Origin: Basidiobolus meristosporus CBS 931.73
Lineage: Eukaryota; Fungi; Basidiobolomycota
Direction of reading: 5' to 3'
Assembly (NCBI GenBank): GCA_002104905.1
Contig: MCFE01000413.1
Span: 15,611-79,610, forward strand
Length of the DNA: 64,000 bases
This document shows, piece after piece, positions 1-62,384 of this stretch. The notes beneath the pieces are model-generated. The model searched no databases. It had not been told where the DNA came from and saw nothing but the letters and a program-made list of their open reading frames with translations. Both the position numbers and the translations under genes were made by a program. How positions within the stretch are numbered: position 1 is the stretch's first letter; each line of letters begins with the position of its first letter.

Positions 1-239
1 GTAAAGCAAAAACTGGCACCACTTATGTCAAAGAAATAATGGAAACTTTATCAAAGGATGACTTCACTATCTAGACCACTCTGCCTTTGGCTTGTGTCAT
101 GCCACTATTACATTTCAGAGGATGGTCAATAATGTGTTAGAAATATGCAATGGCAATGCTCTCTTGTGTATGAGGATTAAATGACATTATCCCTAACCAC
201 TCATATCCATCAGGTTATCATGCACCCCTCTCTCTTCCA

Positions 240-1035
240 TGCCTGTACCAACATCCTACAGAATATTTTGACAAATATGGTGTCAATGCTAACATCTCCC
301 ACTCCCACACTTATGTCTTGCAAAGATTCAAATCTAAGCTCAAGGAAAAATTTGGTCATGACATAAAACTTAACCCCCTAAAATTCACCCCCATGATGCA
401 ATTGCTCAACGTATAACTTGGAAAGGACATCACATGCACCACAACAGCCAACTTGTCTGCAAACTCCCCCTTATTAACCACAGAGGATACTACTTCATTG
501 ATGGCATTGAACATGTACCTTTAATTCAAAAATTATGCAACATTGTTGTCCCTTACATCTCCGCTGCTGATAATGCTGTCTCCTGCAAAAACAGCTTCAG
601 GGGCTCCCTTCTCCCATTATGTGCTTGCATTGAAAATTCCATTGACCTTTATCTAGACATCTCCTCTACCCATAAGGATCTTTATGGTTTTAAGTGCTTG
701 TCAATCTATTGGATCCTGAATAATCTTGATTTTGACTTCAATAAAATTTACAAAATACTTGCCCTCCTTGTTGCCAACCATTTTCATGTAAATACTTTCT
801 CCACCATCTTCATGGCCTCCATGATCAACTCTGAAAACATCATCTCCCCCAAAGATCTACACATTGTAGAATCCAAATATTTCCCCATGCAAGCTAAATA
901 TAGCATTGTCAATACCCTTGGCCTGTTATCTTAACTTGCCCTTATGACCTCTATGGATCTTCTCCAACCCATGGATTGTGATGATTATGGAAACAAACTT
1001 GGCAAATCTTCCAACATCCTTTGAGACCAAATCTT
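240..1035 (+). pseudogene. RNA polymerase second-largest (beta/Rpb2-like) subunit, N-terminal fragment; divergent, probably viral or virus-like element origin
   Basis: Translated across frameshifts: PHDAIAQRITWKG (cf. Rpb2 P.EAR.R.LTY), CKLPLINHRGYYFIDGIEHVPLIQK (cf. G.IP.M...G.F.I.G.E.V...Q), MDCDDYGNKLG (cf. DD.D.YGNKR). Ends at the ATCTT TSD (1031-1035) of the Copia insertion. Start codon not resolvable. Confidence 0.8.
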
Positions 1036-1175
1036 TGTCAAAATATTGGACTATTTGGTATCATTCTGTAGCTGAAAATTTACTTAACAATTCTGGATTA
1101 GTCTTGGTCACTGTGAGACTAATTTACAGCTCTAACTTTGCCACTCTCTTCAGATCTATGAACTTATGATTATTC

Positions 1176-4100
1176 TGTTGCAATTTAAGAAGTGATTTGG
1201 ATATATAAGAACTTATCAAGAAATAGTGATAATAGTTGAACTGTTGTTTATTCATAAAAAAGCTCAGTATTTATACCTTTGTAGAAGTTATAGAGCTGCA
1301 ACACTAAGTAGGGAGGGTTTCTCAATATTCAGGAGCATTCTGTAACAGTTTCAGGGTTAGTACATAATGTTTGGTAATAGTGCTAATTTGATCCTGACTA
1401 TAGGGGAATAATAATAAGATCATATATCTGGAGAAAGTGGCAAAGTTAAGGCAGTAAATGAGTCCTAAAGTGACTAAGACTAGCCTAGAATTGTTAAGTA
1501 AATTTTTAGCTGCTGAATGATACCAAATAGTCCAATATTTCAACACTCCCCCTCAACTAAATAATTTCTTAATCCCATTTTCTCTCTAAGAATCTCAAAC
1601 TGTGGCCTAGCTAGTGGTTTTGTCAATATGTCTGCCACCATTTTGTCAGTTGGGCAGTAAACCAGCTCTACTAAGTTATTTTCTACAGCTTCCCTCACAA
1701 AGTGATGCTGTATATGAATGTGCTTAGTTCTGGCATGATTAGTAGGATTTCTAGCTAATGAAATACAACTTTGATTATCCTTGTAAATACATGTTGATTC
1801 ACCTGAATTAAAACCTAAATCTTTGAATAATTTTCGTAGCCATAAAGCCTCCTTAGTTGCTTGACATGCAGCCATATATTTGGCATCAGTTGTAGATAGT
1901 GCCACAGTTGGTTGTTTCTTGCAATTCCAAGTAATAGCTGCACCAGCATAAAGAAATACATAGCCTGTGGTAGAGCGTCTGTCAATCAGATCCCTACCCC
2001 AATCTGAATCACTATGACCATCAAATTTTTGCCTATTAGCTGCTCCAGAGTATTCCAGTACCATATTTATGGTACCTTGTAGATATCTGAAAATCCGCTT
2101 AACTGCTGCAATTAGATCTGATCCATAATTCTGCATGAATTGACTGACTATTCCAACTGCTACTGCAATATCTGGACATGTAGACACCATCAAGTATATT
2201 AGGCTACCAACCATTGATTGATAGGGAAAGTTTGGTCCATATTTGAGCCGTTTTCATCTATAACTGGCTGAGATTTGCTTAATTTCAGGGTATTGTCCTT
2301 AGGGGTTGCTGCAGGCTTGCAATTTTCCATTTTGAAGCATCTAACAATGTCCCTGATGTACTTAGACTGATTCAGCACAATTTTCTGCGTAGGTATGTCA
2401 AATTTGACCTCAATTCCAAGAAAATAGCTCAATTTTCCAAGATCTTTCATCTCAAACTTGCTGAAGAGATCTGATTTCGTCTGTTTAAGTGCCTCTTGAT
2501 CACTTGTAGCTATACTTAGGTTGTCCACATAAAGAACTAGGATGATCGCACCCTTTTTGAGCTGTTTCACATATATACTGTGATCTGCAGTGCTGTGAGA
2601 GACCCCAATTTCCTCTAGATATGTGTCAATATTGTTATACCATGCTCTGGGTGCCTGCTTAAGCCCATACAATGATTTTCTAAGTTTGTACCCCTTATGG
2701 GGGTCTTTTGGATTGGTAAAGCCATCTGGTTGCTCCATATATATAGTTTCTTGCAAATCCCCATTTAGAAAGGCTGTTTTAACGTCCATTTGGTGTAGAT
2801 CTAGACTGTGTACAGCTGCCAGGGCTAGAACTGTCATAATAGAGTTAAATTTGGCAACCGGAGCAAATGTTTCCTTAAAGTCTAGTCCCTGGATCTGGAA
2901 ATAGCCTTTAGCTACTAATCTAGCCTTTTACTTATCAACGGCACCATTTGAGGTTATCTTGATCTTGTAGACCCATCTACATCCTATTGGCTTTCTCCCA
3001 TTTGGTAAATCTACCAGTTCCCACGTTTTTGCCTTGATCAGTGATTGGTACTCCTCCTGCATGGCTTGTTGCCTCTTAGTAGCATCTGGACCTTGCATTG
3101 CCTGTTCCAAATTCTGAGGTTTGGCACATAAGGCAAGATAAGCCTCTTCATGATCATTAGATGTCTGCCACCAGGATCCAGGGGCATTTCTTATTCTGGT
3201 AGATCTCCTAACTGGGATAATCTGTTCTGATCTGGAACTGGTAGAAGTATCTTCCATCTCAGGCTGGATTTGGTACGTATCTTCTTCATTTGTGTTGATT
3301 GCATCATCAGGCAGCTGGCCAATGATTTCTGTGGCTTTCTGATCTGAATTCTCCTCAAATACAACGTCCCTGCTCTTGATCAGCTTCTGAATTTTGCCAT
3401 CATACACTCTATACCCTTTAGTATCTTCACAATACCCAAGAAAGATCCCTTTTCTACTCTTTGGTTCCAACTTTGAGTGTTTTTTGTCAGGGATGTGATA
3501 AAAAACATCACTGCCAAAGATCCTGAGGTGCCGGAGATCTGGCTTTTTGCCTGTATATGCTTCAAAGGGTGTAGAATCATGTAGTGCTGTTGTTGGGCAT
3601 CTGTTCATGATGTATACAGCAGTAGCAACAGATTCAGCCCAAAACTTGTAGTCCATTCCCTTATCATGTAGCATAGATCTTCCCATCTCTACAATTGTCC
3701 TATTTGCACGTTCTGCTACTCCATTTTGCTGTGGAGTATAAGAACTGTGGTCTACTGAAGTATACCAGTAGACAAGCAGTACTTTGCAAATTCCTTTGAG
3801 AAGTATTCTCCTCCATTGTCACTTTGTAGTACCTTCAATTTACACCCAGTTTGTGTTTCTGCCATGTTCTTGAAGTGCTTGAACATCTCTAAAGCTTCAT
3901 CCTTTGTTTTGAGGAAGTACACCCATGTATATCTTGTCTTGTCATCAATAAACGTCATAAAGTATCTCTTGGCTCCAAAGGACAGTATTCTCATGGGGCC
4001 ACATATGTCTGAGTGTAAAATAGCCAATATTTCGGTGGTATTGATGCCTTCTGAGCTCTTGAAACGTTGCCTAGCTTGTTTGCCATATGAACATCCCTTA

Positions 4101-5861
4101 CAAACATTCAATTTGATCAGAATTGAGTATTTTAGGCCCAAAACAAGCTAATTTTTCACCAATTGGCTCATTTTCTGTTCCCCTATGTGTCCTAGCCTCC
4201 TATGCCACGTCTCCCAGTTAGTTTCATCAGTTTCAGCAATGTAGACATACTCAAGCACAATGATCTTGCATTGTAACTTGTATATATTGTGATCTCTGAT
4301 TCCCAAAGCTAATTTTTGTCCATTTTCACTCAATATTGAGCAGCTCAGCTTAGTAAAAGCAAATTTCAGTCCATGAGTAGTTGCTTTACTGACTGAGAGT
4401 AGGTTCTTAGCTATTCCAGGTACATAGAGTACGTCAGTCAGTTTTGCTGTTGTTGCCCCTGAGTTATCACTCATATTTAGTTGTATAGACCCACTGGCGG
4501 GAGCTTCCAATGCAGAGCTATCTCCCAGATAAACCTTTCTTACAGGAATAGTCTTTAAGTTGCTGAACCAATCCTTTATACCACAAATATACTGTGATGC
4601 TCCAGAGTCAATATACCAATCATTACTTCGGTTACTTGCACTCTCTTGTACAGTGACAAATAGCTGTTCATCAGTAGTTATATGGTTTGCCTGCTCTAGT
4701 TTCTATTTTTTGTCTGCTTGTTTCTTCTTGCATTCTCTTGCCCAGTGTCCTGGCTTCTTACAGTAGTTACAGCAGCCAGGTTTTCTTTGGTTTTGTTGCT
4801 TTCCCTTCTTTTCTGTATGCCTTTCTGAACTGAATAAAGTATTATCTTCAATTTTCTCTGCTTGATCATTACGTCTGAGTTCTTCATGGAGGAGCCTTCC
4901 TTTGACATAGTCTAAAGTCAGGTTGTCTTCTCTGCTTTCAAAAGAAAGTATGAGTGGCTCATACTTGTCTGGTAGGCTGCAAAGCAGACAGAGTATCTTT
5001 TCTTCATCATCTACACTACCATTAATACTGTAAAGTTCTTCTGCAAGTGTCTCCATTCTGGTAATGAGTTGTAGAATGTCATCATCTGGCTTTTTTCTCA
5101 TGTTGAAGAACTTTTGTTTCAAATAAAGCTTGCTTGACACTGACTTTGCTCTAAAGATCTTCTCTAAGGATTCCCATGCTGCTTTGGCAGTATTTGAGGC
5201 ATGGATTTGTCCAATGAAGGAGTCTTGCACATTGATGCATATTGCATTGAAGGCCTTTCTCTCCTTCTCTTGAAACTTCTCCACATCTTCTGCTGTTCCT
5301 TTGGGCTCAACTTTCTTTCCTGTTACTATGTTCCAAAGCTTTCTTTCCTCAAGGTGGATCTGCATCTTGAATTCTCCAAAGTCTGTAGTTCTTCCCATCA
5401 AACCTCTCCTTTACAGGGAAGATGTTGGTATTGCTTTGTTTGCTGGTAGAAGTCATCTTTCGAATAGATTAAGGCAATTGGGGCTCATAACCTGTTGCAA
5501 TTCAAGAAGTGATTTGGATATAAAGAACTTATCAAGAAATAGTGATAATAGTTAAACTGTGGTTTATTCATAAAGAAGCTCAGTATTTATTCCTTTGTAG
5601 AAGTTATAGAGCTGCAACACTAAGTAGGGAGGGTTTCTCAATATTCAGGAGCATTCTGTAACAGTTTCAGGGTTAGTACGTAATGTTTGGTAATAGTGCT
5701 AATTTGATCCTGACTATAGGGGAATAATCATAAGATCATGTATCTGGAGAAAGTGGCAAAGTTAAGGCAGTAAATGAGTCCTAAAGTGACTAAGACTAGC
5801 CTAGAATTGCTAAGTAAATTTTTAGCTGCTGAATGATACCAAATAGTCCAATATTTCAACA
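1176..5861 (-). mobile_element. Ty1/Copia LTR retrotransposon (inner element, same family), inserted in the 5' LTR of the outer copy
   Basis: LTRs 1176-1545 and 5493-5861 (about 10 differences in about 370 bp by eye); TG...CA ends; PBS GGTTATGAGCCCC; PPT; TSD TATTC at 1171-1175 and 5862-5866. Confidence 0.95.
1546..5401 (-). pseudogene. Copia gag-pol polyprotein (gag, CCHC knuckle, protease, integrase, RT, RNase H), frameshifted
   Basis: ORF fragments 4703-5401 (gag, CNYCKKPGHWAREC), 3752-4141 (HSDICGP, SDNGGEY), 2199-2837 (QMDVKTAFLNG, LYGLKQAPRAW, YVDN), 1540-2214 (DSDWG, RTKHI). IN-before-RT order is diagnostic of Copia. Confidence 0.93.
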
Positions 5862-8800
5862 TATTCCCCTATAGTCAGGATCAAATTTGCACTATTACCA
5901 AACATTATGTACTAACCCTGAAACTGTTACAAAATGCTCCTGAATATTGAGAAACCCTTCTTACTTAGTGTTACAGCTGTATTACTACTACAAAGGTATA
6001 AATACTGTGCTTCTTTACTAATAAACTACAGCTCAACTACTATCACTATTTCTTGATAAGTTCCTTATATCCAAATCACTACTTAGATTGCAGTAGGTTA
6101 TGCGCCCCAAATGCCTTAATCTATTCTAAAGATGACTTCTACCAGTAAACAGAACAACACAAACATCTTCCCTGTAAAGGAGAGGTCTGATGGAAAGAAC
6201 TACAGACTTTGGAGAATTAAGATGCAGATCCACCTTGAGGAAAGGAAGCTTTGGAATATAGTAACAGGAAAAGAAGTTAAGCCCAAAGGAAAAGCAGAAG
6301 AAGTGGAGAAGTTTCAAGAGGAGAGAAAGGCCTTTAATGCCATATGTATCAATGTGCAAGATTTCTACATTGGTCAAATCCATGCTTCAAATACTGCCAA
6401 AGCAGCATGGGAATCCTTAGTGAAGATCTTTAGAGCAAAGTCAGTATCAAGCAAGCTTTATTTAAAACAAAAGTTCTTCAACATGAGGAAGAAGCCAGAT
6501 GATGACATGCTGCTACTTGTTACCAAAATGGAGACACTTGCAGAAGAACTTTACAGTTTTAATGCTGGTGTAGGTGATAAAGAAAAGATACTCTGTCTGC
6601 TTTGCAGCCTACCAGAAATTGAATGCAGAGAAGACAATTTCACTTTAGACTATGTCAAAGGAAGACTTCTCCATGAAAAACTCCGACATAATGATCAAGC
6701 AGAAAAAACTGAAGATAATGCTTTATTTGGTTCAGTGTGGCACACAGAAAAGAAGGGAAAGCAACAAAACCAAAGAAGCCTGGTTGCTGCAACTATTGTA
6801 AAAGGCCAGGACACTGGGCAAGAGAATGCAAGAAGAAACAAGCAGGCAAAAAACAGAAACTAGAGCAGGCACACCATATAACTGCCGATGAACAGCCACT
6901 TGTAATTGTACAAGAGAGTGCAAGTAACCAAAGTAATGAATGATATATTGACTCTGGTGCATCACAGCATATTTGTGGTATAAAGGAGTGGTTCAGCAAC
7001 TTAAGCACTATTCCTTTAAGAAAGGTTTCTCTGGGATATAACTCTGCTCTGGAAGCTACCACAAGTGGGTCTATACAACTAAATATGAGCAATAGCTCAG
7101 GGGCAACAACAGCAAGACTCACTGACGTACTCTATGTGCCTAGAATAGCTAAGAACCTACTCTCAGTCAGTAAAGCAACTGCTCAGGGACTAAAATTTGT
7201 TTTTACTAGGAAGAGCTGCTCAATAGTGAGTGAGAATGGACAAAAACTAGCTTTGGGAATCAAAGATCATAATATATACAGGTTACAATGCAAGATCATT
7301 GTACCTGGGTATGTCAAAACTGCTGAAACTGATGAAACCAACTGGGAGACGTGGCATAGGAGGCTAGGAAAAATTGGGGAACAGAAAATGAGCAAATTAG
7401 TGAAAAATCAGCTTGTTTTGGGCCTATAGTACTCAATTCTAATCAAATTGAATGTTTGTAAGGGATGTTCGTATGGAAAACAAGTTAGGCAACATTTAAA
7501 AAGCTCAGAAGGCTGCAATACCACCAAAATATTGGCAATGGTACACTTAGAGATACTTTATGACGTTTATTGATGACAAGACAAGATATACATGGGTGTA
7601 CTTCCTCAAAACAAAGGATGAAGCTTTAGAGATGTTCAAGCACTTCAAGAACACGGCAGAAACACAAACTGGGTGTAAATTGAAGGTACTACAAAGTGAC
7701 AATGGGGGAGAATACTGCTCAGAGGAGTTTGCAAAAAACTGCTTGTCTACTGGTATACTTCAGTCAACCACAGTTCTTATACTCCACAGCAAAATGGATT
7801 AGCAGAACATTCAAATAGAACAATAGTAGAGATGGAAAGATATATGCTACATGATAAGGGAATGGACTACAAGTTTTGGGCTGAATCTGTTGCTACCTCA
7901 GTATGCATTAAGAACACATACCCAGCACTATGTGATTCTACACCCTTTGAAGCATATACAGGCAAAAAACCAGATCTCCAGCACCTCAGGATTATCCCAG
8001 TTAGGAGATTCACCAGAATAAGAAATGCCCCTGGATCCTGGTGGCAGTCATCTAATGATCATGACAAAGCTTGTTTTGTCTTATGTGCTGAACCTCAGAA
8101 TCTGGAACAGGCAACGCAAAGTCCACATGCTACTATGTGGCAACAAGCCATGCAGGAGGAGTACCAATCACTGATCAAGACAAAAATGTGGGAACTGGTA
8201 GATATACCAAATGGGAGAAAGCCAATAGAATGTAGATGGTTCTACAAGATCGAGATAACCTCAAATGGTGCCATTAATAAGTACAAGGCTAGATTGATGG
8301 CTAAAGGCTACTCCCAGCTTCAGGGACTAGATTTTAAGGAAACATTTGCCCCAGTTGCCAAATTTAACTCCATTAGGGCAGTTCTAGCCCTGTCAGCTGT
8401 ACACAGTTTAGATCTACACCAAATGGGCATCAGAAGAGCCTTTCTAAATGGGGATTTGCAAGAAACTATATATATGGAGCAACCAGATGGCTTTACCAAT
8501 CCAAAAGACCCCCATAAGGGGTACAAACTTAGAAAATTGTTGTATGGGCTTGAGCAGGCACCTAGAGCATGGTATAACAAGATTGACATATATCCAGAGG
8601 AAACTGGGTACTCTTGTAGCACTGCAGATCACATTATGTACATGAAACAGCTCAAAAAGGGTGTGATCATCATAGTTCTTTACGTGGACAACCTAGTTAT
8701 AGCCACAAGTAACCAAGAGGCACTTAAACATATGGATCAGATCTCTTCAGCAAGTTTAAGATGAAAGATCTTGGAAAATTGAGCTATATTGTTGGAATTG

Positions 8801-10037
8801 AGGTCAAATTTGACATCCCTACACAGAATATTGTGCTAAATCAGTCCAACTACACCAGGGATACTAGAAGATGCTTTAAATGGATAATTGCAGACCTGCA
8901 GCTGCCCCTATGTACAATAACCTGAAGTTAAGCAAATCTCAGCCAGTTATAGATGAAAATGGCTCACATATGGACCAGAACTTTTCTAATCAATCAATTG
9001 TTGGTAGTCTTATGTACTTGACAGTGTCTACATGTCTAGATATTGCAGTGACTGTTGGAATAGACATTCAATTCATGCAGAATTATGGATCAGATCAAAT
9101 TGTAGTAGTTAAGTGGATTTTTGGATATCTACAAGATACCATAAATATGGTACTGGAATACTCTGGAGCAGCTAATAGGCAAAAATTGATGGTTGTAGTG
9201 ATTCAGATTGGGATAGGGATCTGATTGACTGACGCTCACTACAAGCTATGTATTTCTCTATGCTGGTGCAGCAATTACTTGGAATTGCAAGAAACAACCA
9301 ACTGTGGCCCTATCTACAACTGAAGCAGAATATATGGCTGCATGTAAAGCAACTAAGGAGGCTATATGGCTACAAAGATTACTCAAAGACTTAGATTTTA
9401 ATTCACATGAGCCAACATGTATTTACAAGGATAATCAAAGTTGTATTTCATTAGCTAGAAATCCTACTAACCATACCAGCACTAAGCACATTGATATACA
9501 GCATCACTTTGTGAGGGAAGCTGTAGAAAATATCTTAGTAGAGTTGGTGTGCTGCCCAACTAACAAAATGATGGCAGATATATTGACAAAGCCACTAGCT
9601 AGGACACTATTTGAGAATCTCAGGGAGGAATCAGGATTAAGAAATTATTTAGTTGAGGTGGAGTGTTGCAGTATTGGACTATTTGGTATCATTCTGCAGC
9701 TAAAAATTTACTTAACAATACTGGATTAGTCTTGGTCACTGTGACACTAATTTGTTGCTCTAACTTTGCCACTTTCTTCAGATTTATGATCTTATGATTA
9801 TTCCCCTATAGTCAGGATCAAATTAGCACTAATACTAACTATTATGTACTAACCCTGAAACTGCTACAAAATGCTCCTGAACTTTGAGAAACCCTCCTTA
9901 CTTAGTGTTACAGCTGTATTACTACTACAAAGGTATAAATACTGAGCTTCTTTACTAATAAACAACAGCTCAACTGCTATCACTATTTCTTGATAAATTC
10001 CTTATATGCAAATCACTTCCTGAATTGCAACAATCTT

Positions 10038-11819
10038 TTCTTGTGCCATCAAACTCTCTGGCATAAAAAGTTTTCTGCAAACTTTTTTGGAGGATATACT
10101 CTTTACCATGCTAAAGAAGGTCAACAAATTATAAACAACAAAATCAATCCCAAGATAGTTGACTTGGTCTTGTGCAAATCCACCATTGACAAGCTCTCCA
10201 TGGTTTGCAAAATTAATGTCCCCTGTGACAAAAATACTTCTAACATTCACATGCAAGCCATTCACCCCAGCCTGTTGGGTTACATCTGTCTCTGCAAAAC
10301 CCCTGAAGGCAAAATTGTTGTTATTATTTAACATCTTTCCCTCACTTGTTTGCTCCCACCATCTCCAATGAAAAATTTTGCAAAGCTCAAGCTTAACTAA
10401 AAAATAATTTATCCTTCAACAATTGTGACGTCAAACATCCTGTTCTCTTAGACAGGTACATCATTGGCTTTTATGGTAGCACCTTGGCACATCTTCAAAA
10501 AAAACTTAAACAAATTCATCCCATGAACTTTGTCCTCTATTACAAACCCATCCCCAGAATTATTTACATCAAAACTTCTTCTGACCAACTTATGAGACCA
10601 CCTTTTACACTCTCTGGCACACCAATAGATTGAAACAAGTTAAATTCTCTCTCCTGGGATTCTCTTTTAGAACCTGGTAAGATAGAACTTGTCAATCCTG
10701 GTGAACAATCCCAGATCACCCTGGGTGGCATTGGATATCATGGACACCATCATATGTATACTCACATGAAAATTCATCCCTGGGTAATGATGGGTATTCC
10801 TGCCTCTATGGTCCCCAATGGCAACCACAACCAGTCTGCATGTAATTTCTTTGCTTCTGCCATGATCAAACAAGGTATGCAACTACACTCCCCTCCTACT
10901 ATAGCTTCTGGAGATACAAACTTCTTGGAATCTGCCCAGGTGCCATTGGTCAATACATTTGCTTATAATCTATTAAAAATGGATAAACAACCCAACAGGG
11001 TTAAATTAGTTGTCATGATACAATCTTATACTGGATATAACCAAAATGATGGTGTTATTATTTCCAAACTGCCGTTGACCAAGGTTTGTTTCAATCTTTT
11101 ACCCAACATGTCAATGTTTGTGAACTTTTGGGTAACAAATCTGAAATCATTGTAACCAGGGAAATGTTTGATGAAACTAAATATGTAAATGGTGTTTCAA
11201 CAGTTGGTGGCATACTGGAAGATGGTGACTTATAACGTACCATAGTTGATGGAATTACCAAAAAAATTTGGGTTGTCAAATGTCATAAGGGTAAGGCCAC
11301 CAAGGTTTCACATCCTAAACACTTGCATATCAAGGTTATTTCAATTTTCATAAATACATTGAAGTTGGTGACAAAGTTGCTTCTAGACATGTGCAGAAAG
11401 GTGTTGTCACAATTACTCTACCACAGAAAGATTTGCCATATACAGAAGAAGGTATTGTGCCTGATATATTTATTAGTCCACATGCTATTCCTGGACATAT
11501 GACAATTGACCAACTTTTGGAAGGTTTTGGTTGGTAAAGATTGTTCTATACATGGATAGACAAAAGATGGAACACCATTTACAGCAGATGCATACAAATG
11601 TATGAAAGATATACAATGGGTCTTGTGAGCACTCTGTTGGAACTAGCTTGAACCCCTCCTCAAGATGTTCCATTCCACTTATACAGTGCTGTTATTCCTG
11701 AGCCACAAAATCTTAACACACAGGATATACCCATCCACTCAGTGTGTTTAAGACAGTTCTATTTGAGGCATTGCATGTTAATGAATATAGAGTTAGATGA
11801 TGACTATGTTTCAATGTAA
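10038..11819 (+). pseudogene. RNA polymerase second-largest (beta/Rpb2-like) subunit, central and C-terminal fragment
   Basis: Ordered Rpb2 motifs across stops and frameshifts: [147 protein letters not shown]. Continues part 1 in frame after removing 1036-10037 (...DQIF|SCAIK). Confidence 0.9.
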
Positions 11820-11845
11820 GCCCCTAATTCTCATCAATCTTGATA

Positions 11846-12210
11846 TGTTGCAATTTCAAAAGTGTTTTGGATATAAGGTACTTATCAGCAAGTAATGCTA
11901 ATAGTTGAGCTGTTATTAATTCATAAAATTCCTCAGTATTTATATCATTGTAAAAGTAATACATCTGTAACACTAACTTGGAAGAACTTCTTGATATTCA
12001 GAATCTTACTGTAAAAGTCTTAAGGTCAATACATGAAGCATGGTCAAAGTCCTACTTGATAATAACTGTAGGGGAATAATCATAGAACCATAGATCTGAG
12101 AAAGAGTGCCAAACTTAACAATGTAAACTAGTCCTGTAGTGACTGATACTAGTCTGGAATTGCTAAGTCAATTTATAGCTGCTGCACAACACCACATGAT
12201 CAGCATATTA
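11846..12210 (-). repeat. Solo LTR, Copia family A, diverged
   Basis: Begins TGTTGCAATTTC and is colinear with the LTR at 1176-1545. Right end eroded; no clear TSD. Confidence 0.8.
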
Positions 12211-20666: not shown

Positions 20667-20961
20667 CAAGCTAAAAGTTTTTCTGTTAAAGCAAGTTTAG
20701 ATTAAGATAAATAACTTTGAGAAATAATTTCATCAAACCAAATTAGATTTTTATATTTGAGATAAAAAAGTTTTTAGAAAATAGTTTGTCAAGCTAAAAG
20801 TTTCTTTGTTAAAGCAAATTTGGATTTGATATAAATAACTTTAAGAAATAATTTCATCAAACCAAATTAGATTAATATATTTGAGATAAAAAAGTTTTTA
20901 AAAAATAGTTTGTCAAGCTAAAAGTTTTTTTGTTAAAGCAAATTTAGATTTGATATAAAAA
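20667..20961. repeat. AT-rich tandem repeat, about 124-bp unit, about 2.4 copies
   Basis: Unit starts CAAGCTAAAAG at 20667, 20790 and 20914; units are near-identical. Confidence 0.9.
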
Positions 20962-21695
20962 AGACTTGTTCTGTTGGATAGTGCCACATTGAGCCATGAG
21001 TGCCAAATGATGCCATAGTGTGCCAGAGTGGCCAAGTGAGCCTATACTTGGCCACAGAGTGTGAAACATAGATCTGCATCTTCACGCAAAGCAGCCCCTG
21101 TGTTTCACCTATGATGCAGGAGAAAATCCATTTTTTGATGTTTTTTTGTGGATCATTGTTATGCAGGATGTATAAGAGCATAGAAGAACTGAAGACATGC
21201 ATCAGGTACTCAATACCCATGGCACTCTGAATCTAGCTCCTGTGGCTTGTAACATGTCACAAAAATGCATGGCACTATCTTGGTCCACTGGTACTATCTG
21301 GCGCTATATTTAATTATTAGCCCTAAAGTAAGATCTATACAAAGTACTTATAGTGCCAGATAGTACCAGTGGACCAAGATAGTGCCATGCATTTTTGTGA
21401 CATGTTACAAGCCACAGGAGCTAGATTCAGAGTGCCATGGGTATTGAGTACCAAATGCATATTTTCAATCCTTTTGTGCTCTTACACATCCTGCACAACA
21501 TTGACCTAAAAAAAAAGGTCAAAAAACGGATTTTCTCCAACACAATTGGTGAAGCACAGGGGCTGCTTTGCGTGAAGATGCAGATCTATGTTTCACACTC
21601 TGTGGCCAAGTATAGGCTCACTTGGCCACTCTGGCACACTATGGCATCATTTGGCACTCATGGCTTAATGTGGCACTATCCAACAGAACAAGTCT
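20962..21695. mobile_element. Palindromic non-autonomous element (MITE/foldback) of the Harbinger-like family, copy 1
   Basis: Ends AGACTTGTTC...GAACAAGTCT (family TIR). The whole 734 bp is an inverted repeat. Core arms 21205-21308 and 21349-21452 have one mismatch around a 40-nt loop. Confidence 0.9.
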
Positions 21696-21709
21696 TTTTT
21701 ATATATATA

Positions 21710-24035: not shown

Positions 24036-25173
24036 CTACTCACTAATCTAGCAGAACAGGATACTCAGAGAATTGACAGAGATGAAAGAGTCCAAGTAGA
24101 AAGTTGTGGCTAGAGATCTACATCTAGATGCCAGCGGATTTATGTAAGAAGATACTTAACATGACAAGTATTGAAATCATTATTGGGGTGAGAGTGAGGT
24201 GATAGGATGAGGCAGCTGTGTGCAAGCAATTCCACATGAGACTTGTGCTGTACAGTACAGATGCATCCACTTGTGCCCCAGCTTTGGGAACCAAGGAGAT
24301 TTTGAGTGAGTTTTTGCCTCTGATGACCAATGTGCTGCATGATATATTACTAGTGCCAAGTGGAGTCCAAGAGCAATATTCACAGGACTCATGAATGCAG
24401 AAGTTTTGATATATGAGTCAGAGGGTAGTAAGTACCTTGTGAATCAGAAGGTGAGCTTCTAGAGGAAGAATACTAACCATGGGCAACTGGGTAAGGATTG
24501 CACCAGCATGCCCCGCTGGATTCTGCACTAAGCATTGCAATGTCAGCACACCAGTTCACATGAGTCCAACCCATGCCAACAACCTTTACCAGGGCACTAC
24601 AAACCAATATAACATGTGTCAGGTCATCATGTGTGCACTAGAACAAAGCTACAGAACTTATCAAATTGCTCAATTCAACATATGTCCACCAGAATAGGCT
24701 GTATTGCATTTACACATGGCATTGCATTGAGCTCAGCTAAGGGCCATGTCATAACATCAGGACTCACCTGTGCATGCATTTAGACCAGACCATCAGCATG
24801 TTACTTCTGGATATGTAGCTAACGAAGACCCACTGGAGGTACCTCCACAACAGGAGCCTTTGGCAGAAAAAAGAATATGCCAGCATGTGGCACTTTAGGC
24901 AGGTTCCATAGCATCCTCTGGAGCACCTCAGTGCAGCCAAGTGGCAGCATTGCGCTCATCAGCCAGTAAGTTGAATACTGACTATGAGAATACTGGTGGC
25001 CAAGATGATAGTCAACAATGAAACAGAACCACTATGAGTAAATACCCTGCATACTTTAACAACATCTGTGACACCAGTGCAGCCATTTGATCTATTATGC
25101 AGCAACCCAATTAGTTGCATGCCAGCTATTATACTTTGTCCAATTACCAAAGTCAGGTGGCTACTTGCGCAAT

Positions 25174-25905
25174 AGACTTGTTCCATTGGATAGTGCCACA
25201 TTGCGCCATGAGTGCCAAATGATGCCATAGTATGTCCGGGAGGCCAACTGAGCCTATACTTGGCCACTGAGTGTCAAGCATAGCTCTGCATCTTCATGCA
25301 AAGCATCCCTGTGTTTCACCCATTGTGCTGGAGAATATCCATTTTTTGACCTTTTTTTTCAGGTCAATGTTGTGAAGGATGTGTAAAAGCACAAAAGGAT
25401 TGAAGTTATGCATCTAGTACTTGATACCCATGGCACTCTGAATCTAGCTCCTGTGGCTTGTAACATGTCACAAAAATGCATGGCACTATCTTGGTCCACT
25501 GGTACTATCTGGCACTATAAGTGCTTTGTACAGATCTTACTTTGGGGCTAATGATTAAATATAGTGCCAGATAGTACCAGTGGACCAAGATAGTGCCATG
25601 CATTTTTGTGACATGTTACAAGCCACAGGAGCTAGATTCAGAGTGCCATGGGTATTGAGTACCTGATGCAAGTCTTCAGTTCTTCTGTGCTCTTACATAT
25701 CTGCACAACATTGATCCACAAAAAAACATCCAAAAATGGATTTTCTCCAACACAAAGGGTGAAACACAGGGGCTGTTTTGCATGGAGATGCAGAGCTAAG
25801 CTTCACACTCTGTGGCCAAGTATAGGTTCACTTGATCTCTCTGGCACACTATAGCATCATATGGCACTCATAGCTCAATGTGGCACTATCCAACGGAACA
25901 AGTCT
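25174..25905. mobile_element. Palindromic MITE copy 2, inverted relative to copy 1
   Basis: AGACTTGTTCC...GGAACAAGTCT flanked by AAT direct repeats (25171-25173, 25906-25908). The empty site CTCAATAGGCAAAATGGG is present in the sister element at about 29840. The loop is the reverse complement of the copy 1 loop. Confidence 0.93.
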
Positions 25906-26079
25906 AATAGGCAAAATGGGATAATTGATGGCAAATTAGGTAGCTTGTGTATGGACAACTCGTTTATTGGGGCTCACTGCTTCAGGATACTCTTAGACCA
26001 ATCAATCACTAACATACTATTCTATTGGAGCAATGGTAACTAAAATGGTAAATGTTAGGATAGCTTATAGGGTGATACA

Positions 26080-42349: not shown

Positions 42350-42400
42350 AACACAAACACACAAACCCCTTCTACCCCCGCCTAACCATATTCCCTTGCG
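41780..42400. promoter_or_regulatory. CpG-rich upstream region (CpG-island-like promoter) of the host gene
   Basis: CpG dinucleotides reappear abruptly at about 41783 after tens of kb with very few. Promoter function is inferred from position. Confidence 0.55.
42301..42366. repeat. Imperfect (CA)n microsatellite
   Basis: CACCTCACACATACACTTACACATACACATACACATACACACACACACAAACACAAACACACAAAC, about 35 bp upstream of the ATG. Confidence 0.9.
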
Positions 42401-45400
42401 ATGGACCTAGACCTATCGGCGTTCAAGTCCTTGGTCATCCACGACTCCGCTGCGGAAGAGCGGGTCCAGGTGAACCAACGCCATCTGATCGACAAGATCC
42501 TGGCCAGATACTCGGCCCCGTTCACCATCTATCGGGAGTTACTTCAGAACGCCAATGATGCCGGGGCGACGGAGGCGAAGATCCACTTCCGGACCAAAAC
42601 CCCCGACGACGCCCAGTCGAACCCCAACCCTAACCCCAACCCCAAACCAAAACCCTTCACCAAGGAGTTCTTCCGAACTAACTCCTCCGAGCCGAAGGAG
42701 AGCAACCCCACCTCCTTCGACCCGAACGCCTCCTGCCACACCGTGCTCTTCCAGAACAACGGTCGCCCCTTCCAGCCGGAGGACTGGAACCGACTGAAGA
42801 AGATCGCGGAGGGGAACCCGGACGAGCAGAAGATCGGGTTCTTCGGGGTGGGCTTCTACAGTCTGTTCTCCATCTGCGAGGAGCCGTTCGTGGTGTCGGA
42901 CCAGGAGTGCATGGCGTTCTTCTGGAAGGGAGACCAGTTGTACACGAAGCGGCTGGCGGTCCCGGAGCCCATGAGGCAGCTCGGTGGGTGGACCACGTTC
43001 TCGTTGGACCTCCGGGAGCCGGTGACCGTGCCGGAGGTCGAGGAGTTCGGCCGGTTCCTGGCGTGCTCGATCGCGTTCACCCAGAACCTGCGCTCGGTGT
43101 CGCTGTACCTGGACGACCAGCTGCTGGTGAAGGTGAGCAAGAAGGTGTCGGAGCCGAACCCGCTCTCCTGCACCCACCCCACCGGACAGCGCCTCACGAA
43201 CGAGGCTTGCCAGTCGCTGCACACCCGGTCGCCCCACGGGGTGTTCCAGCTGAGCGCGGTGTACGGGCTCCAGGTGCAAATCGACGCCGAGTACCTCAAG
43301 TGCACCAAGACCAGCGGGATGTTCTGGAGTTCGGGGCCGAAATTCAGCCGCATCAGCTCCACCCTCTTCCTCAAGATCGCCCAGGCCCACCTGACCACCC
43401 ACGTCACGCCCGCGTTCGCGGACCAGATGGAGAGGACGACGAAGAAGTCCCCGCCCAAGACCACCCTCGTCCAGATGATCTACACCGGGCTCGAGGAGTA
43501 CGAGGCGTCGATCAGCGTGCACCAGGACTTCCCCATCTTCCGGGACCTGCTCCCGTACCCCCACCAGGGGAAGGTGTTCATCGGGTTCCCCACCCACCAG
43601 ACCACCGGGTGCTCCGTCCATCTCGCCGCCCACCTGATCCCCACCGTGGAGCGGGAGTCGATCGACTTCGTGGACCCCCACCTCGCCCGCTGGAACCAGG
43701 AGATGCTCAGCATGTGCGCGCTGCTGGCCCGGGTCCTCTACGACGAGGAGATCGCCGACATCTCCCAGCGGTACCTCCGCCTCGTGGACGGCCCCAAGCC
43801 CAAAGAGGGCAGCCCCAGCGGGGAGCCGGATCCGGCGATGACGTGGCTCGAGCGACGCTGCATCCACGCCATGACCTCCTTCTGCTTCCACCCGGCCACG
43901 CCGATCAAGACGGTGGGGAAGCTGATGGAGAAGTGTTTCTTCGCCAGCGGGAAGGTCCCCCCGGGACTCCTCTCCTCGTGCGGCGTGAAGCCGTGTGACC
44001 AGGTGCGGCTCCCGGACCCGGAGCTCGTCCCCTTCCTTCGCACGACCCCCTACCTTCCGTCCAAGATTCAGAAAGAGGCTGGCGAGATGCTGAGCAGCCT
44101 GCAGGAGCGCTACCACCTGGTCAAGGTTGGCCTCCCCGATCTGATCCGGGACGTGAGTGGATATGCGATCACGGTAGATCAGGCGGTAGCTCTCCTACGC
44201 TGGTGGCTCGGGTTCAAGGAATCCCAAGGTCGCGGCCACCTTCCCCCGGAGCATGGGCAGCAGTTGTTGCGGGCCATCACCCTTCTGAACCCGTTGCCCA
44301 GCTTCTCGCTGGGCAGCCCGGAGATCGGGGCCAAGGACGCGGTCGGGCCCACCATGCCGGTCGCGTTGGCGGAGTTCCGCTACTTCCTGAACCCCAAGGT
44401 GGTCCACCAGGGTCTGCCGGTCCCCCAGGAGACCCTCCCGTTCGAACTCACCCGGCATTTCAACCAGCGGGAGCTGCGAGAGGCGTTCGGCACGTGGAAG
44501 GAGCTGACGCTCGCCATCTGGACGGAGCACGTCGTGCAGCAACACCGCTCGGAGCTCACCACCTCCCCGGTCTTCTCCGAGAAGATCCACCATGTGCTCT
44601 ACCGTGGGTTCTACCAGCAATCGCCGAACGACCGGGCCCTGATGCTTAGCCTGCTGGAGGGGGTGGCGTGCATCCCCACCCAGCTAGGCCAGCGCCTCCC
44701 CAAGGAGACCTACTTCAAGAACGTGAAACTCTTCTCCGACCTGCCCATCGTCCAGCTGGCCAAGTTCCCGAGCGGCATGGAGCGATTCCTCGGGGACCTA
44801 GGCGTGCGCACCCACGTGGACCTGCAGCTGGTCTTCGACCGTCTGGAGCATCTCAACTGGGACTTCATGAAGCTTCTCAAATACCTCGCCTCCGTGAAAT
44901 CCCAGCTCTCGGAGGCGGAGATGGAGAAGCTGAGCCAGACCCCGCTCTTCCCCGCCCGGAGCCTCATCCGGCCAAAGCCCCACCAAAGCACCGAGCGCCA
45001 AGAGCCAGGAGCCCAGCCCGCCGCCGGCTCGATTCAAGGCCAGCGAGCTGTACGCCCCGGTCGAACCCCTGTCCAACCTTGGGCTACCGGTGATCGCGTG
45101 GCCCGACAAGTGGCGCGACTCGTCGGAGGAGGCGAAGTTCCTTCAGAGGTTGGGTCTGAGAACCAACCCGCCGCTGGACAGGCTCATGCTGATCGCGGCA
45201 ACCGCGGAATCCCCGGAAACCCGGATGAATGCGTTGAGATTCTTCATCGAGCACTTGCCTCCCACTACCAGTGGGTGTACCGTCGGGAGGAGATCCAGAT
45301 CCCCTTGATTCCCTGCACCCGCCTTAGCCCCCGGCCGGGGACTGGGGACTCGATGGCGAAGGGGGCCACCCTGGGCGATCAGTTCACGAAGACGGAGGCG

Positions 45401-48064
45401 ATGGCGAAACCTACGGAATGCTACGCCAACCCCGCCTCCGAGGTGATGGGATTCAAGATAGTGCATCCGGAGCTGCGACGGGACGCGGAGAAATTCGGGA
45501 TCCTGGAGCAGCCACCGGTGGCCGCGCTCATCACCTTCCTGCAGGCAAGCCCGCCCGGACATCCGACCTACGGCAGATGGGTGTTCGAGTACCTGGCCAG
45601 CCGACAGGCGGACTTTACCTCGGCCGATTGGGAGAAGCTTCGGTTCCTAAAGTTCATCCCTGTCCAGAGCAGCAACGAGACCCCGGTTTACTGGATGGCC
45701 CCGGGCGAATGCTATTTCATCAACGACACGGTCGACTTCAAGTACGACTTCTTCACCTACATCCACTTCGGCCCGATCGCCAACCTGTTCCTGAAAGCGT
45801 GCGGCGTCCAAGAGGAGCCATCCCCAGTCGACCTGGCCCGCATCATCACGAAAGACCCTCCGAAGTTCCTCGAGGCCTGTCAGCGAAACCCGGCCCACAC
45901 CTCGGGCCAAGCCTCTCGTGACCACGGATACGAGCATTACCTGCAAGTGCTGCGACAGTTGGCCATCCAGATGCCGACGTTGTCCCGGCACTCTGACATC
46001 ATGAGGGCCATGAGGAGTCGACCCTTCCTGATCGCGGTCCGGGAGAAAGGCGGCCAGTCGATGGCGGAGAAGAAGAGCGACCAACACCCGATGGACGTAT
46101 CGGAAGCCTCGGTGCTGGAGTATCGCCTAGAATCCCCGGGCAACATCTGTCTGGTGGACGACACGGTCCTCCAGAAGACATTCAACCCGTGGTACGCGCC
46201 GATGGAGACGTTACTGGAGACGTTCTACGAGCAGCTGGGCAGCACCTGGATATCGAAGCAAGTGACCGAGTCTTCCCGGCCAACGGGGGCGATCACCCAG
46301 AGTGGCCGATCCCAAGCTTTGCAGAATCTGATCCGAGAGCGTGCCCCGCTGCTGATCTACGACTACCAACGAGAACAGTCCACGAAAGTGCTCCGCTCCA
46401 GCGAGTGGTTGGCCACGAAACTGCGGGTGCTTGAGGTGGATCAGATCCACATCCACCGCAAGTTCCTCCCCACCCACCAGGTCCACACCGAAGCCACTAC
46501 CGCCTGCTTGGAGCGGGGGCTACGCGGGGTGGACGCGCCGAGGGACGCCGTGTTCCTCCTGATCTCCCGTCAGGACTACAACGAGTTCGACATTGCCACC
46601 TGTCTATGCAAGATCCTTTTCTCCAAATCCCGGCTGAACGACGCGCTGCTACTCGAGACCCTACTCTCCACCAGCTTGCAGCACCTGAAGCGCAAAGGTT
46701 TCCCTGTCGATCGAATCCTCAACCACCAGAAGGCGGTGACCCCGGCGGCAACGCCGAAACCCGTTGAGCCCGCTCCACCCCGGTCCTCCACCCCGCCGAA
46801 GGGATCACCGGCCAGTGACCAGCCACCACCTTACGAGCCCAAGGGCCCGACGCAACCCGCACCGCTACCCGCCCACCTGAATCCCTACTTCAGCCAGCTT
46901 CAAGCCATGTTCCCGGATTGCGATCCGAATTACCTGAAGTCCTGCCTGTTGGAGGAGAAACGGGATCACGTTGCCCGAGTGAGCAACCGGCTGCTGGACG
47001 ACACGTACCCTCGCCTCCCCAACCACACCACGCAGAAGGAACGAACAGCCGTGGGTGGCAAGCAGCCCGCTCCCCAGCCACCGGCCACCACACCGCCCAC
47101 CCCCGTCCCCACCTCGTCAAATCTGATGGACAGGCTTAGCCGTCGCTTCCAGAGCGGGATCAACGATTGGTACAAGAGCTACGACAAGCCATCCGGCCCG
47201 TCCACCACGACGATCGACGATTCCGAGAGCAAGCATCAGCCGATCCCTGGTGGGTTCCCCAGCCTTCCCCGACCTCCCAAGAGCCAGAGCCAGAGCTCGA
47301 GCTCGAGCCCGAACCCGAGCCAGCCCGGCGGGGAGCCGGTGAACACGGTCGGACCCGACCACACGGAGCTGCTGCAACGATCGCTGAAATCCTCGGTGGA
47401 TTCGTGTGTTCGTAACGTCAACGCCTTCGACGGTCGCGAGCCGGAGAAGGCGGCCACCCCACCCCCGCCGAAGGACTACACCGGGGAGGCCCACCACCAT
47501 TACTGCAGCGTGATCCCACCGCAGAAACTCGCTCATTGCGCGCGAATCGGTCAGTTCGACCTCTACCTTGAGACCGGGATGGCCTCCAGCGAGTTGTTCG
47601 CGTGCGATCTGGCCGGGCAAAGCGTCCCCTTGGTGCAGTTCGATCGGCTGACCGGCTCACTCACCGCCCCCGACGGTAGCACCATGGCGCCGGGAAGTAA
47701 TCTGCACTCGCTGCACCTGATGGGCCACACGTTGACCACTCTAGTCCAGGTGTTCCAGCTGAACCCCGCTTCGGTGCACCTCTACTACGACCGGGAGGGG
47801 CCCACCGTAGCATTCAATCGGGGCCGCTCGCTCTTCTTCAACCTACGGTACTTCCTGCTCCTCCATCACCCCCGGATGGCGGTGTCCCCGACGGAGGCGG
47901 CCGACGTTCACTTCTACTGGTTCATGGTCGCCTGCCACGAGCTCGCCCACAACTTCGTCTCCGATCACAACGCTCAGCACGAGTTCTACCTGTCGTCGTT
48001 TGCGGAGCAGTATCTCGGCCCCTTGGTCCGCTCCCTCCTCCGAATGGGAAAGGTGAGCGCGTGA
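42401..48064 (+). CDS. Sacsin-like GHKL ATPase / DUF3684-like protein with CUE-like segment and C-terminal HExxH motif (about 1887 aa); two compensating frameshifts at about 44955 and 45257
   Basis: ELLQNANDA, NNGRPF and KIGFFGVGFYSLF (GHKL boxes of the sacsin/Nov type); QLQAMFPDCDPNYL (CUE-like); CHELAHN; strong GC3 bias. The DUF3684 assignment is from memory of this fungal family. Confidence 0.9.
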   Translation: MDLDLSAFKSLVIHDSAAEERVQVNQRHLIDKILARYSAPFTIYRELLQNANDAGATEAKIHFRTKTPDDAQSNPNPNPNPKPKPFTKEFFRTNSSEPKESNPTSFDPNASCHTVLFQNNGRPFQPEDWNRLKKIAEGNPDEQKIGFFGVGFYSLFSICEEPFVVSDQECMAFFWKGDQLYTKRLAVPEPMRQLGGWTTFSLDLREPVTVPEVEEFGRFLACSIAFTQNLRSVSLYLDDQLLVKVSKKVSEPNPLSCTHPTGQRLTNEACQSLHTRSPHGVFQLSAVYGLQVQIDAEYLKCTKTSGMFWSSGPKFSRISSTLFLKIAQAHLTTHVTPAFADQMERTTKKSPPKTTLVQMIYTGLEEYEASISVHQDFPIFRDLLPYPHQGKVFIGFPTHQTTGCSVHLAAHLIPTVERESIDFVDPHLARWNQEMLSMCALLARVLYDEEIADISQRYLRLVDGPKPKEGSPSGEPDPAMTWLERRCIHAMTSFCFHPATPIKTVGKLMEKCFFASGKVPPGLLSSCGVKPCDQVRLPDPELVPFLRTTPYLPSKIQKEAGEMLSSLQERYHLVKVGLPDLIRDVSGYAITVDQAVALLRWWLGFKESQGRGHLPPEHGQQLLRAITLLNPLPSFSLGSPEIGAKDAVGPTMPVALAEFRYFLNPKVVHQGLPVPQETLPFELTRHFNQRELREAFGTWKELTLAIWTEHVVQQHRSELTTSPVFSEKIHHVLYRGFYQQSPNDRALMLSLLEGVACIPTQLGQRLPKETYFKNVKLFSDLPIVQLAKFPSGMERFLGDLGVRTHVDLQLVFDRLEHLNWDFMKLLKYLASVKSQLSEAEMEKLSQTPLFPARSLIRPKPHQSTERQEPGAQPAAGSIQGQRAVRPGRTPVQPWATGDRVARQVARLVGGGEVPSEVGSENQPAAGQAHADRGNRGIPGNPDECVEILHRALASHYQWVYRREEIQIPLIPCTRLSPRPGTGDSMAKGATLGDQFTKTEAMAKPTECYANPASEVMGFKIVHPELRRDAEKFGILEQPPVAALITFLQASPPGHPTYGRWVFEYLASRQADFTSADWEKLRFLKFIPVQSSNETPVYWMAPGECYFINDTVDFKYDFFTYIHFGPIANLFLKACGVQEEPSPVDLARIITKDPPKFLEACQRNPAHTSGQASRDHGYEHYLQVLRQLAIQMPTLSRHSDIMRAMRSRPFLIAVREKGGQSMAEKKSDQHPMDVSEASVLEYRLESPGNICLVDDTVLQKTFNPWYAPMETLLETFYEQLGSTWISKQVTESSRPTGAITQSGRSQALQNLIRERAPLLIYDYQREQSTKVLRSSEWLATKLRVLEVDQIHIHRKFLPTHQVHTEATTACLERGLRGVDAPRDAVFLLISRQDYNEFDIATCLCKILFSKSRLNDALLLETLLSTSLQHLKRKGFPVDRILNHQKAVTPAATPKPVEPAPPRSSTPPKGSPASDQPPPYEPKGPTQPAPLPAHLNPYFSQLQAMFPDCDPNYLKSCLLEEKRDHVARVSNRLLDDTYPRLPNHTTQKERTAVGGKQPAPQPPATTPPTPVPTSSNLMDRLSRRFQSGINDWYKSYDKPSGPSTTTIDDSESKHQPIPGGFPSLPRPPKSQSQSSSSSPNPSQPGGEPVNTVGPDHTELLQRSLKSSVDSCVRNVNAFDGREPEKAATPPPPKDYTGEAHHHYCSVIPPQKLAHCARIGQFDLYLETGMASSELFACDLAGQSVPLVQFDRLTGSLTAPDGSTMAPGSNLHSLHLMGHTLTTLVQVFQLNPASVHLYYDREGPTVAFNRGRSLFFNLRYFLLLHHPRMAVSPTEAADVHFYWFMVACHELAHNFVSDHNAQHEFYLSSFAEQYLGPLVRSLLRMGKVSA

Positions 48065-54430: not shown

Positions 54431-54756
54431 TGAACAGTAAAATCTCTTCACAAAACTTAATCAAAACAAAGAGCATTAGCTAGGGGTCAGATCATGGTGC
54501 AACCAAGCAAGCAGCATGTACCTTATTGTGCCAAAAGACAATTAAATTGAGGTAAGACAGCAAATGGTGCACAAACAAGTGTTGTCAATGGCAAAGCTGA
54601 GGGGAGCTAGGTAGTGACAGCTGGGTATTAGATTGGAGGCCCAATTGAGGTCATTGTGTCTATAAGTGGGTGGCATCAGCCAAAAGAACAGATATATGGG
54701 ATAATAGTAACAGCATTAGTTAGCATTTGAAAGCCAAAGCTAATTAGAGCAAAAGA

Positions 54757-54840
54757 TGCTGACTGTGAGGTTTGAACTCACGCCCTGTTTCTGGGAGAGG
54801 ATCTTAAGTCACCTGCCTTAGACCACTTGGCCAAATCAGC
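54757..54840 (-). pseudogene. tRNA-Leu(TAA) pseudogene
   Basis: Six differences from 63541-63624, five at CpG, including the T-loop/B-box GTTCGAA>GTTCAAA. Confidence 0.88.
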
Positions 54841-62150: not shown

Positions 62151-62384
62151 CCAAGACTTAATGATGTATAGCTGGGTAGCAAGGTCTGGGTCATAGAGCT
62201 ACTGCTTGTGGTAGATGAGGATGTATACCAAATGCAGGTTCTGGATATTTGGGAACTTGGGACCACCAGTGGCCGTATACTCAATTGAATTGGATGCATT
62301 GAATCCAATTAATTAATTGGGAAATGATCATACAAATAACCCGGGACTCAAAATAGAATAGAATCCAGGCAAGTAAGAAAAAGA

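Follow-up and report, generated by a model that had tools for sequence, protein, structure and literature searches.

Whether a broken RNA polymerase gene buried under retrotransposons in an early-diverging fungus is a dead copy of a host gene or the remnant of a foreign genetic element is the question raised by a 64,000-nt stretch of Basidiobolus meristosporus CBS 931.73 DNA (GenBank contig MCFE01000413.1, positions 15,611 to 79,610 of the forward strand), here called the window. The window is a transposon-rich, CpG-stripped eukaryotic region in which the observed/expected (o/e) CpG ratio is 0.05-0.15, except in one GC-rich DUF3684 gene (0.92). Near its left end lies a decayed gene for RPB2, the second-largest subunit of multisubunit RNA polymerases (here termed the fossil). 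Our reading, to which we give a probability of roughly 70%, is that the fossil is the dead, truncated RPB2 of a giant-virus-related element, that it lies in what is likely a Basidiobolus chromosome, and that its donor was likely a small, multicopy, capsid-less circle. Taken by itself, the fossil would only add another degraded insert to those already known from a lineage described in 2020; what makes it noteworthy is its intact relatives.

A decayed RPB2 gene of non-host type

The fossil lies in two parts on either side of a Copia element that itself carries a second Copia (Table 1). This architecture, proposed in an earlier reading of the sequence (the original prediction), is borne out by the ATCTT and TATTC duplications, by RVT_2 and gag matches, by contig joins and by alignment to a Basidiobolus ranarum protein. 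Contigs of three of the four sequencing runs compared (X1, X2 and X4) connect position 1029 directly to 10032, and B. ranarum KAK9667531.1 spans the insertion, with residues 1-195 corresponding to 452-1036 (64% identity) and residues 194-222 to 10033-10119. Thus, two independent lines identify the two fragments as one gene. In run X4, homology starts at 196.

The right-hand piece matches Pfam Rpb2_3 and Rpb2_6 above the cut-off, while the left-hand piece has no Pfam match; the check by profile models proposed earlier is borne out with Pfam for the right side, and for the left with a family-specific profile. This RPB2 profile was built minus its two Basidiobolus rows and was controlled with 50 shuffles. 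The left piece scores 99.7 bits (best shuffle -1.3) and the right-hand pieces 92, 187, 99, 15 and 8 bits (shuffles 7.6 or less); one 25-residue right-hand piece has no score against this profile. The pieces are colinear with the profile, which identifies the gene as a second-largest RNA polymerase subunit of the RPB2/RpoB type. The hallmark motifs are thus in the expected order, although several motif residues have decayed and the C-terminal region (host RPB2 residues 1049-1216, including the GGLRFGEME motif) is missing.

With its breaks replaced by X, the fossil reads as 740 positions with 13 X. From position 374 onward it carries the stops and frameshifts that had been noted earlier, with 7 stops and 6 joins counted, and this part spans positions 41-744 of the 898 in the profile; farther upstream, a short piece read in a different frame corresponds to profile positions 8-39. 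The extent first given for the gene, 240-11819, needs revision at both ends: the start is probably near an ATG at 220, and homology stops near 11595, with 11596-11819 giving no score against the family profile in any of three frames. The length of about 860 codons first estimated counted unrelated sequence and missed the truncation. About 790 codons show homology, and they belong to a gene that is truncated; the point that the protein is short compared to cellular Rpb2 stands, as intact family members have about 820-1000 residues. The CpG o/e ratio is 0.07 in the 5' part and 0.06 in the 3' part. Run X1, whose sequence hardly differs from the window's at the host DUF3684 gene, carries two compensating single-base indels in that gene (44968 and 45256); thus, some frame breaks of the fossil may reflect mistakes in the assembly or allelic differences. 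For all five breaks compared, however, X1/X2 depth partly or wholly supports the window (wholly at 11068), and the decay is therefore considered real.

The search for further element genes suggested by the original prediction returned none in the 64-kb window, either by tblastn or by phmmer of 229 element open reading frames (ORFs) against six frames, the RPB2 region being unreported. The fossil is thus taken as an isolated captured piece of about 2.4 kb. Bases 62-178 resembled a scrap of reverse transcriptase, for which Pfam gave only a sub-threshold transposase-domain match.

The closest named proteins, at 64-80% identity, are B. meristosporus ORX98269.1 and B. ranarum KAK9759139.1, KAK9718595.1 and KAK9667531.1. 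The fossil is 80% identical to ORX98269.1, a second, compact RPB2 of B. meristosporus, and 67% to KAK9667531.1, but only 24% to the ordinary B. meristosporus host RPB2; the range over six named host subunits is 24-28%, with RPC2 and RPA2 at about 25%. A processed pseudogene of host RPB2, RPC2 or RPA2 would account for the absence of introns, and single-sequence matches to solved structures are indeed cellular and archaeal subunits; yet this origin is largely refuted and very improbable, given the identities of 24-28% to host subunits against 67-80% to the compact type, the rejection of a host RPB2 placement and the deletions shared with the compact family. FastTree (71 rows) and IQ-TREE with LG+G4 (40 of those rows) both group the fossil with the Basidiobolus compact proteins at a support of 100, in a compact-RPB2 clade (support 100) that is separate from RPB2, RPC2, RPA2, archaeal and IMG/VR rows. 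RPC2 and RPA2 are represented by one to three non-Basidiobolus rows each. In the approximately unbiased (AU) test, which covered RPB2 only, a tree that forces the fossil together with four host RPB2s is worse by 570 log-likelihood units (p-AU 2.2e-05). Measured against host RPB2, the fossil has eight deletions in common with its nearest intact relatives (P0003 and P0004), and most of these are also present in three other aligned family rows. The earlier judgment that this is unlikely to be a host Rpb2, Rpa2 or Rpc2 copy is thus upheld, and short-branch nesting within host clades is seen in neither tree. We are highly confident that the fossil is a piece of a virus-like DNA element in what is likely a fungal chromosome and not a host RPB2 copy.

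Intact relatives and a probable fundsalphavirus assignment

Single-protein scans of viral contigs returned no relative, and a profile scan gave 80 loci at only 28-35% identity, which served as references. A clade-specific motif search retrieved 2 viral and 14 metagenome loci, and 13 of these 16 encode the compact RPB2 family. These 13 loci have an ORF coverage of 0.80-0.99 and a CpG o/e ratio of 0.72-1.35; among intact family genes, the ratio is 0.64-1.15 in all 10 measured. The sources of the named members are B. meristosporus, B. ranarum and Linnemannia elongata, all early-diverging fungi. The 80 neighbor ORFs scanned include matches to (i) PolB, D5, UDG and XPG, (ii) RPB1 in two halves, RPB5 and TFIIS, and (iii) SF2 helicases, capping enzyme, DUF5757 and HET, with a weak N7-methyltransferase match inside the capping enzyme of one relative. 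Thus, the canonical PolB, D5 primase-helicase, multisubunit RNA polymerase and capping enzyme of Nucleocytoviricota are present in the relatives, and the compact-RPB2 clade together with these gene sets supports the proposed endogenized virus-like DNA element.

The same inventory bears on the suggestion of a possibly undescribed lineage, which is probably wrong. Fundsalphaviruses are described as endogenous pieces related to nucleocytoplasmic large DNA viruses (NCLDVs) within early-diverging fungi, located among Copia and Gypsy elements, with B. meristosporus and B. heterosporus listed as hosts (Gong 2020, PMC7017919). Their gene set (PolB, D5, SNF2 helicase, RPB2, RPB5 and the RPB1 halves RP1n and RP1c) is found in the relatives, a separate SAM methyltransferase gene was not seen, and UDG is shared as well; the neighbor genes agree with Fig. 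S2 of that paper, as far as this figure is available. Judged by gene content and host overlap, the fossil's lineage is probably that of the fundsalphaviruses, already described, and the fossil adds a new member to this group, which was first reported in 2020. The available part of PMC7017919 treats these sequences as fossils of giant-virus relatives, has an RPB2 tree that includes no Basidiobolus row, and contains no genome in full and no statement of genome size, topology or copy number.

Several known systems resemble the lineage to varying degree. The NCLDV-like inserts of the moss Physcomitrium patens fall inside the fundsalphaviruses by PolB and carry RP1c, RPB2, RP1n, TFIIS, UDG, RPB5, PolB and FLAP (PMC7017919, in the part available); they differ in host, and the likeness to the present elements is one of gene set, not of sequence. 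PolB places the fundsalphaviruses next to Pithovirus (PMC7017919), and the Pithoviridae/Orpheoviridae-like viruses (Pimascovirales) have circular genomes and no A32; however, these genomes reach about 0.6-1.6 Mb and encode a divergent major capsid protein (MCP) (PMC9546926, in the part available), whereas the small relatives described below are of 35-37 kb with no MCP recognized. The Mycodnaviridae (Myers et al. 2026, PMC13533422) are likewise fungal Nucleocytoviricota that are integrated and sometimes found at high coverage (50-fold); by contrast, they reach 350 kb, were discovered through capsid genes, lie near Imitervirales/Algavirales and occur mainly in zoosporic hosts, and the main text of that paper, as far as available, does not mention Basidiobolus. 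Relatives of 35-37 kb with no recognized MCP do not fit the Mycodnaviridae, as judged beside trees that held no Mycodnaviridae RPB2.

The original prediction also offered a plasmid as the source. The pGKL1/pGKL2-type plasmids of yeasts are linear, protein-primed, about 9-13 kb and of a different ancestry from the fossil's lineage; their PolB is protein-primed, their ends are terminal inverted repeats and their RNA polymerase is simpler. An origin from such a cytoplasmic linear plasmid would suit the fungal host, the element's own RNA polymerase and capping enzyme, and the lectin or chitin-binding cargo, but it is the least probable of the alternatives considered: the relatives have a long PolB with exonuclease, D5, separate RPB1 halves, RPB2 and RPB5, and the 37-kb relative described below maps as a circle and lacks terminal inverted repeats. 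What the two kinds of element likely share is lifestyle, that of a cytoplasmic, capsid-less replicon with its own RNA polymerase and capping enzyme and a secreted cargo.

Small circular relatives and a possible free form

A 37,136-bp family contig (G001 contig C3) was found in a scan of prokaryote genomes, binned in a GTDB metagenome-assembled genome (MAG) of Mycoavidus, an endosymbiont of Mortierellaceae fungi. It is probably a binning contaminant from the fungal host, and its RPB2 is sister to L. elongata KAG0067766.1. The contig is 94% coding, with 33 ORFs that by Pfam/NCBIfam include RPB1-N, RPB1-C, RPB2, RPB5, DUF5757, an SF2 helicase and a (weak) capping enzyme, along with PolB, D5, FEN1, UDG and a lectin. 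The ORFs at its two ends correspond to different stretches, residues 148-736 and 741-1257, of one and the same protein encoded by a 35,106-bp IMG/VR contig, and joining the end to the start leaves the frame open over 1119 codons; the 37-kb contig therefore maps as a closed circle. No terminal inverted repeats are present on it. The 35-kb contig has a 116-nt terminal overlap, and 18 of the 33 ORFs (17 genes) of the 37-kb contig are common to both at 24-59% identity. Three further family proteins are from contigs of 36.1-36.8 kb.

In six-frame searches, the 37-kb contig has no match to NCLDV capsid, A32 or VLTF3, and no capsid match is found in the 80 neighbor ORFs or in 15 further locus ORFs, a result to be read with the caveat that divergent capsids can escape detection. 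Since pitho-like viruses with a divergent MCP and no A32 make virions, such profile misses do not prove absence. The fossil could accordingly be the trace of a small but genuine virus within this lineage, whose particles use a capsid protein too divergent to detect. This alternative is unlikely, though it is the strongest considered. It draws on the pitho-like precedent (PMC9546926), on the placement of the lineage next to Pithovirus and some MCP and A32 matches in fungal genomes (PMC7017919; both papers in the parts available), on the presence of two family contigs in IMG/VR and on the many ORFs with no assignment. Against it, the conserved unknowns that were tested resemble a primase-like protein, a DUF5871/DUF2738-like family, a small helix/strand protein (a conserved family of 170-214 residues) and a protein with a likely signal peptide; the sole capsid-sized unknown, of 464 residues, has weak ankyrin-like leads and 92 residues in common with the 35-kb contig; and VLTF3 is missing from the 37-kb contig. 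Profiles of three conserved unknown families gave nothing significant against PDB sequences. A conserved ORF of 280-290 residues (L178:14371-15237 and homologs), which has no Pfam or PDB match, shows by eye primase-like motifs and a C-terminal CxxC-HxxEN zinc site.

A hint of high copy number comes from X4, a run of a related organism. Five RPB2 contigs of X4, at depths of 6582-8457, run on through the Copia site and, at five of the fossil's frame breaks, depart from the window's sequence by single-base indels; they are 214-275 times deeper than the host DUF3684 gene, which lies on one contig at depth 30.7. A separate RPB2 contig of X4 is at depth 14.2. In X1, most of the DUF3684 gene is covered at a depth of 184-189, and the summed depth over the fossil region is 236-500; this amounts to a few broken RPB2 copies and no high-copy form. 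Together, the X4 depth and the in-frame closure of the 37-kb contig suggest, on the basis of assemblies and contig depth, a living, plasmid-like replicon derived from a giant virus.

The lineage might instead exist only as integrated DNA, the circles and high depth reflecting tandem chromosomal arrays, amplification bias or assembly artefacts. The evidence for a free form does consist of contig depth and assemblies of short reads, a tandem array would likewise assemble into a circle, and X4 has the RPB2 contig at depth 14.2. However, the intact genes keep their CpG while it has been stripped from the fossil and from the transposon-rich DNA around it, many separate samples yield relatives that are intact and gene-dense, and end closure is seen in two independent contigs; integration as the sole state is thus improbable, well below the small-virus alternative. 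A capsid-less, plasmid-like replicon in the fungus is the form we slightly favor for the free element.

Several points weigh against the reading of the fossil as a relic of such a replicon. The compact family is on a long branch, and the trees are FastTree and LG+G4, with no mixture model. They include no named Pithovirus, fundsalphavirus, mirusvirus, nudivirus or pGKL sequences, and fundsalphavirus membership therefore rests on gene content and hosts. Both circles belong to a different subclade (with L. elongata) than the fossil, no whole Basidiobolus-type element was seen, and other family contigs, seen in part, reach 52-93 kb. The 116-nt overlap of the 35-kb contig sits within a dispersed repeat. 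About half of the ORFs of the 37-kb contig have no assigned family, the 464-residue ORF folded at a predicted local distance difference test (pLDDT) score of only 36, and the conserved 170-214-residue family reached pLDDT 62, with Foldseek giving no match for it in BFVD or PDB. Pitho-like viruses have no A32 and a divergent capsid protein, yet form virions (PMC9546926, in the part available). The depth of a contig cannot be equated with copy number, and no record gives the type of library behind X4.

With these points counted, the preferred reading of a giant-virus-related replicon would run as follows. In the cytoplasm, the free element would make mRNA with RPB1-N, RPB1-C, RPB2, RPB5, the SF2 helicase, the DUF5757 protein and the capping enzyme, and would replicate with PolB, D5, FEN1, UDG, the primase-like protein and a likely ssDNA-binding protein. 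It would be inherited through cell division or hyphal fusion at high copy, with no virions, and would bear a likely secreted cargo such as the large lectin. Pieces of it would reach the nucleus, be methylated, decay and gather retrotransposons. The fossil would be one such piece, about 2.4 kb of a fundsalphavirus-type element captured into nuclear DNA, methylated at CpG and eroded through deamination, then struck first by the outer Copia and later by the inner one.

A cargo is present on both circles in the form of a 705-761-residue protein with a likely signal peptide (L177:3210-5495 and L180:7475-9592) and a large protein with a weak B-lectin match (including L180:15433-19206). Beside other fundsalphavirus members, Fig. 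S2 of PMC7017919, in the part available, places chitin-binding and zymocin-like chitinase genes. The lectin and secreted proteins, together with these chitinase neighbors, suggest a killer-plasmid-like cargo. In tentative terms, at somewhat under even odds, the fundsalphaviruses as a whole may be more than fossils: living, circular, capsid-less replicons of about 35-90 kb, with a giant virus related to Pithovirus as their ancestor. They would be maintained in hundreds of copies by culturable fungi (Basidiobolus and Mortierellaceae), carry secreted lectin or chitin-binding cargo in the manner of killer plasmids and repeatedly shed pieces, the present fossil among them, into chromosomes. They would perhaps be the most reduced DNA elements that still have a multisubunit RNA polymerase. 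If this is true, a giant-virus lineage has shrunk to a plasmid in fungi, and a minimal eukaryote-type transcription system is available.

The circular, capsid-less and possibly high-copy form of 35-37 kb may be new, and would be the first view of this lineage in intact form, as no description of it was found in the full-text literature searched, a scope from which most subscription papers and some supplements, including giant-virus MAG catalogs, fall away. Active giant-virus infections in fungi are stated to have been undocumented before the capsid-based search of PMC13533422 (in the part available). A capsid-less lineage would escape capsid-based screens.

Intergenic DNA of the relatives has features of its own. 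On the 35-kb contig (L180, L081), dispersed repeats of 100-400 nt in both orientations fill most spacers and the ends, and the intergenic repeats of Pithovirus resemble them. The motif TTTTAAAA occurs within 80 nt upstream of 7 of the 33 ORFs of the 37-kb contig, is absent upstream in 5 of 12 other loci, and was not found upstream of the fossil; as TTTTAAAA(ACTT), it recurs shortly 5' of some genes in one subclade (L177 and L085 intergenic DNA). It is a candidate promoter for the element's own polymerase but, with AT-rich spacers uncontrolled, is not used as evidence.

Features of the locus

Table 1. Coordinates of the fossil RPB2 and of the surrounding Copia elements in the window (LTR, long terminal repeat).
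Feature	Position	Strand	Basis or remark
5' part of the decayed compact RPB2	220-1035	+	Profile positions 8-39 and 47-254; probable start ATG at 220; stops and broken frame
Target-site duplication ATCTT, left copy	1031-1035	+	Sequence
Outer Ty1/Copia, TG..CA ends	1036-10032	+	Self-BLAST; RVT_2 at 7700-8764
Outer Copia LTRs	5' LTR split, 1036-1175 and 5867-6092; 3' LTR, 9664-10032	+	Self-BLAST
Inner Copia, same family, inside the outer 5' LTR	1176-5861	-	gag at 4703-5410; own TATTC duplication (5 bp)
Inner Copia LTRs	1176-1545 and 5492-5861	-	Self-BLAST
Target-site duplication ATCTT, right copy	10033-10037	+	Sequence; joined form in X1, X2 and X4 contigs
3' part of the decayed RPB2, from Rpb2_3 through most of Rpb2_6	10038-11595	+	Pfam; 80% to ORX98269.1; profile to about 747
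Stretch with no detected homology to the RPB2 family or other element genes	11596-11845	.	Profile and element-ORF searches
Older LTR belonging to this Copia family and probably solo; right boundary of the fossil	11846-12197	-	71-76% identity to other LTRs

The outer LTR pair differs at 32 of 366 sites (8.7%) and the inner pair at 9 of 369 (2.4%); the inner Copia is therefore the younger, in agreement with the nesting order.

Farther into the window, 20953-21704 and 25165-25914 form near-perfect inverted repeats (363 nt, 92%, 26 nt apart), with the second set 4.2 kb on; these are likely LTRs or foldback elements. The DUF3684/sacsin-domain gene at 42386-48064 is intronless, has about 62% GC and keeps its CpG within the CpG-stripped region; given the two X1 indels, the assembly may misread part of its ORF. 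Telomere-like TAACCC repeats are located at 42620-42656, inside the region of this gene. Three tRNA-Leu(TAA) and two tRNA-Ala calls fall at 54436-54846, 62376-62474 and 63220-63630; the tRNA-Leu copies, which lie within duplicated segments, may be amplified or SINE-like.

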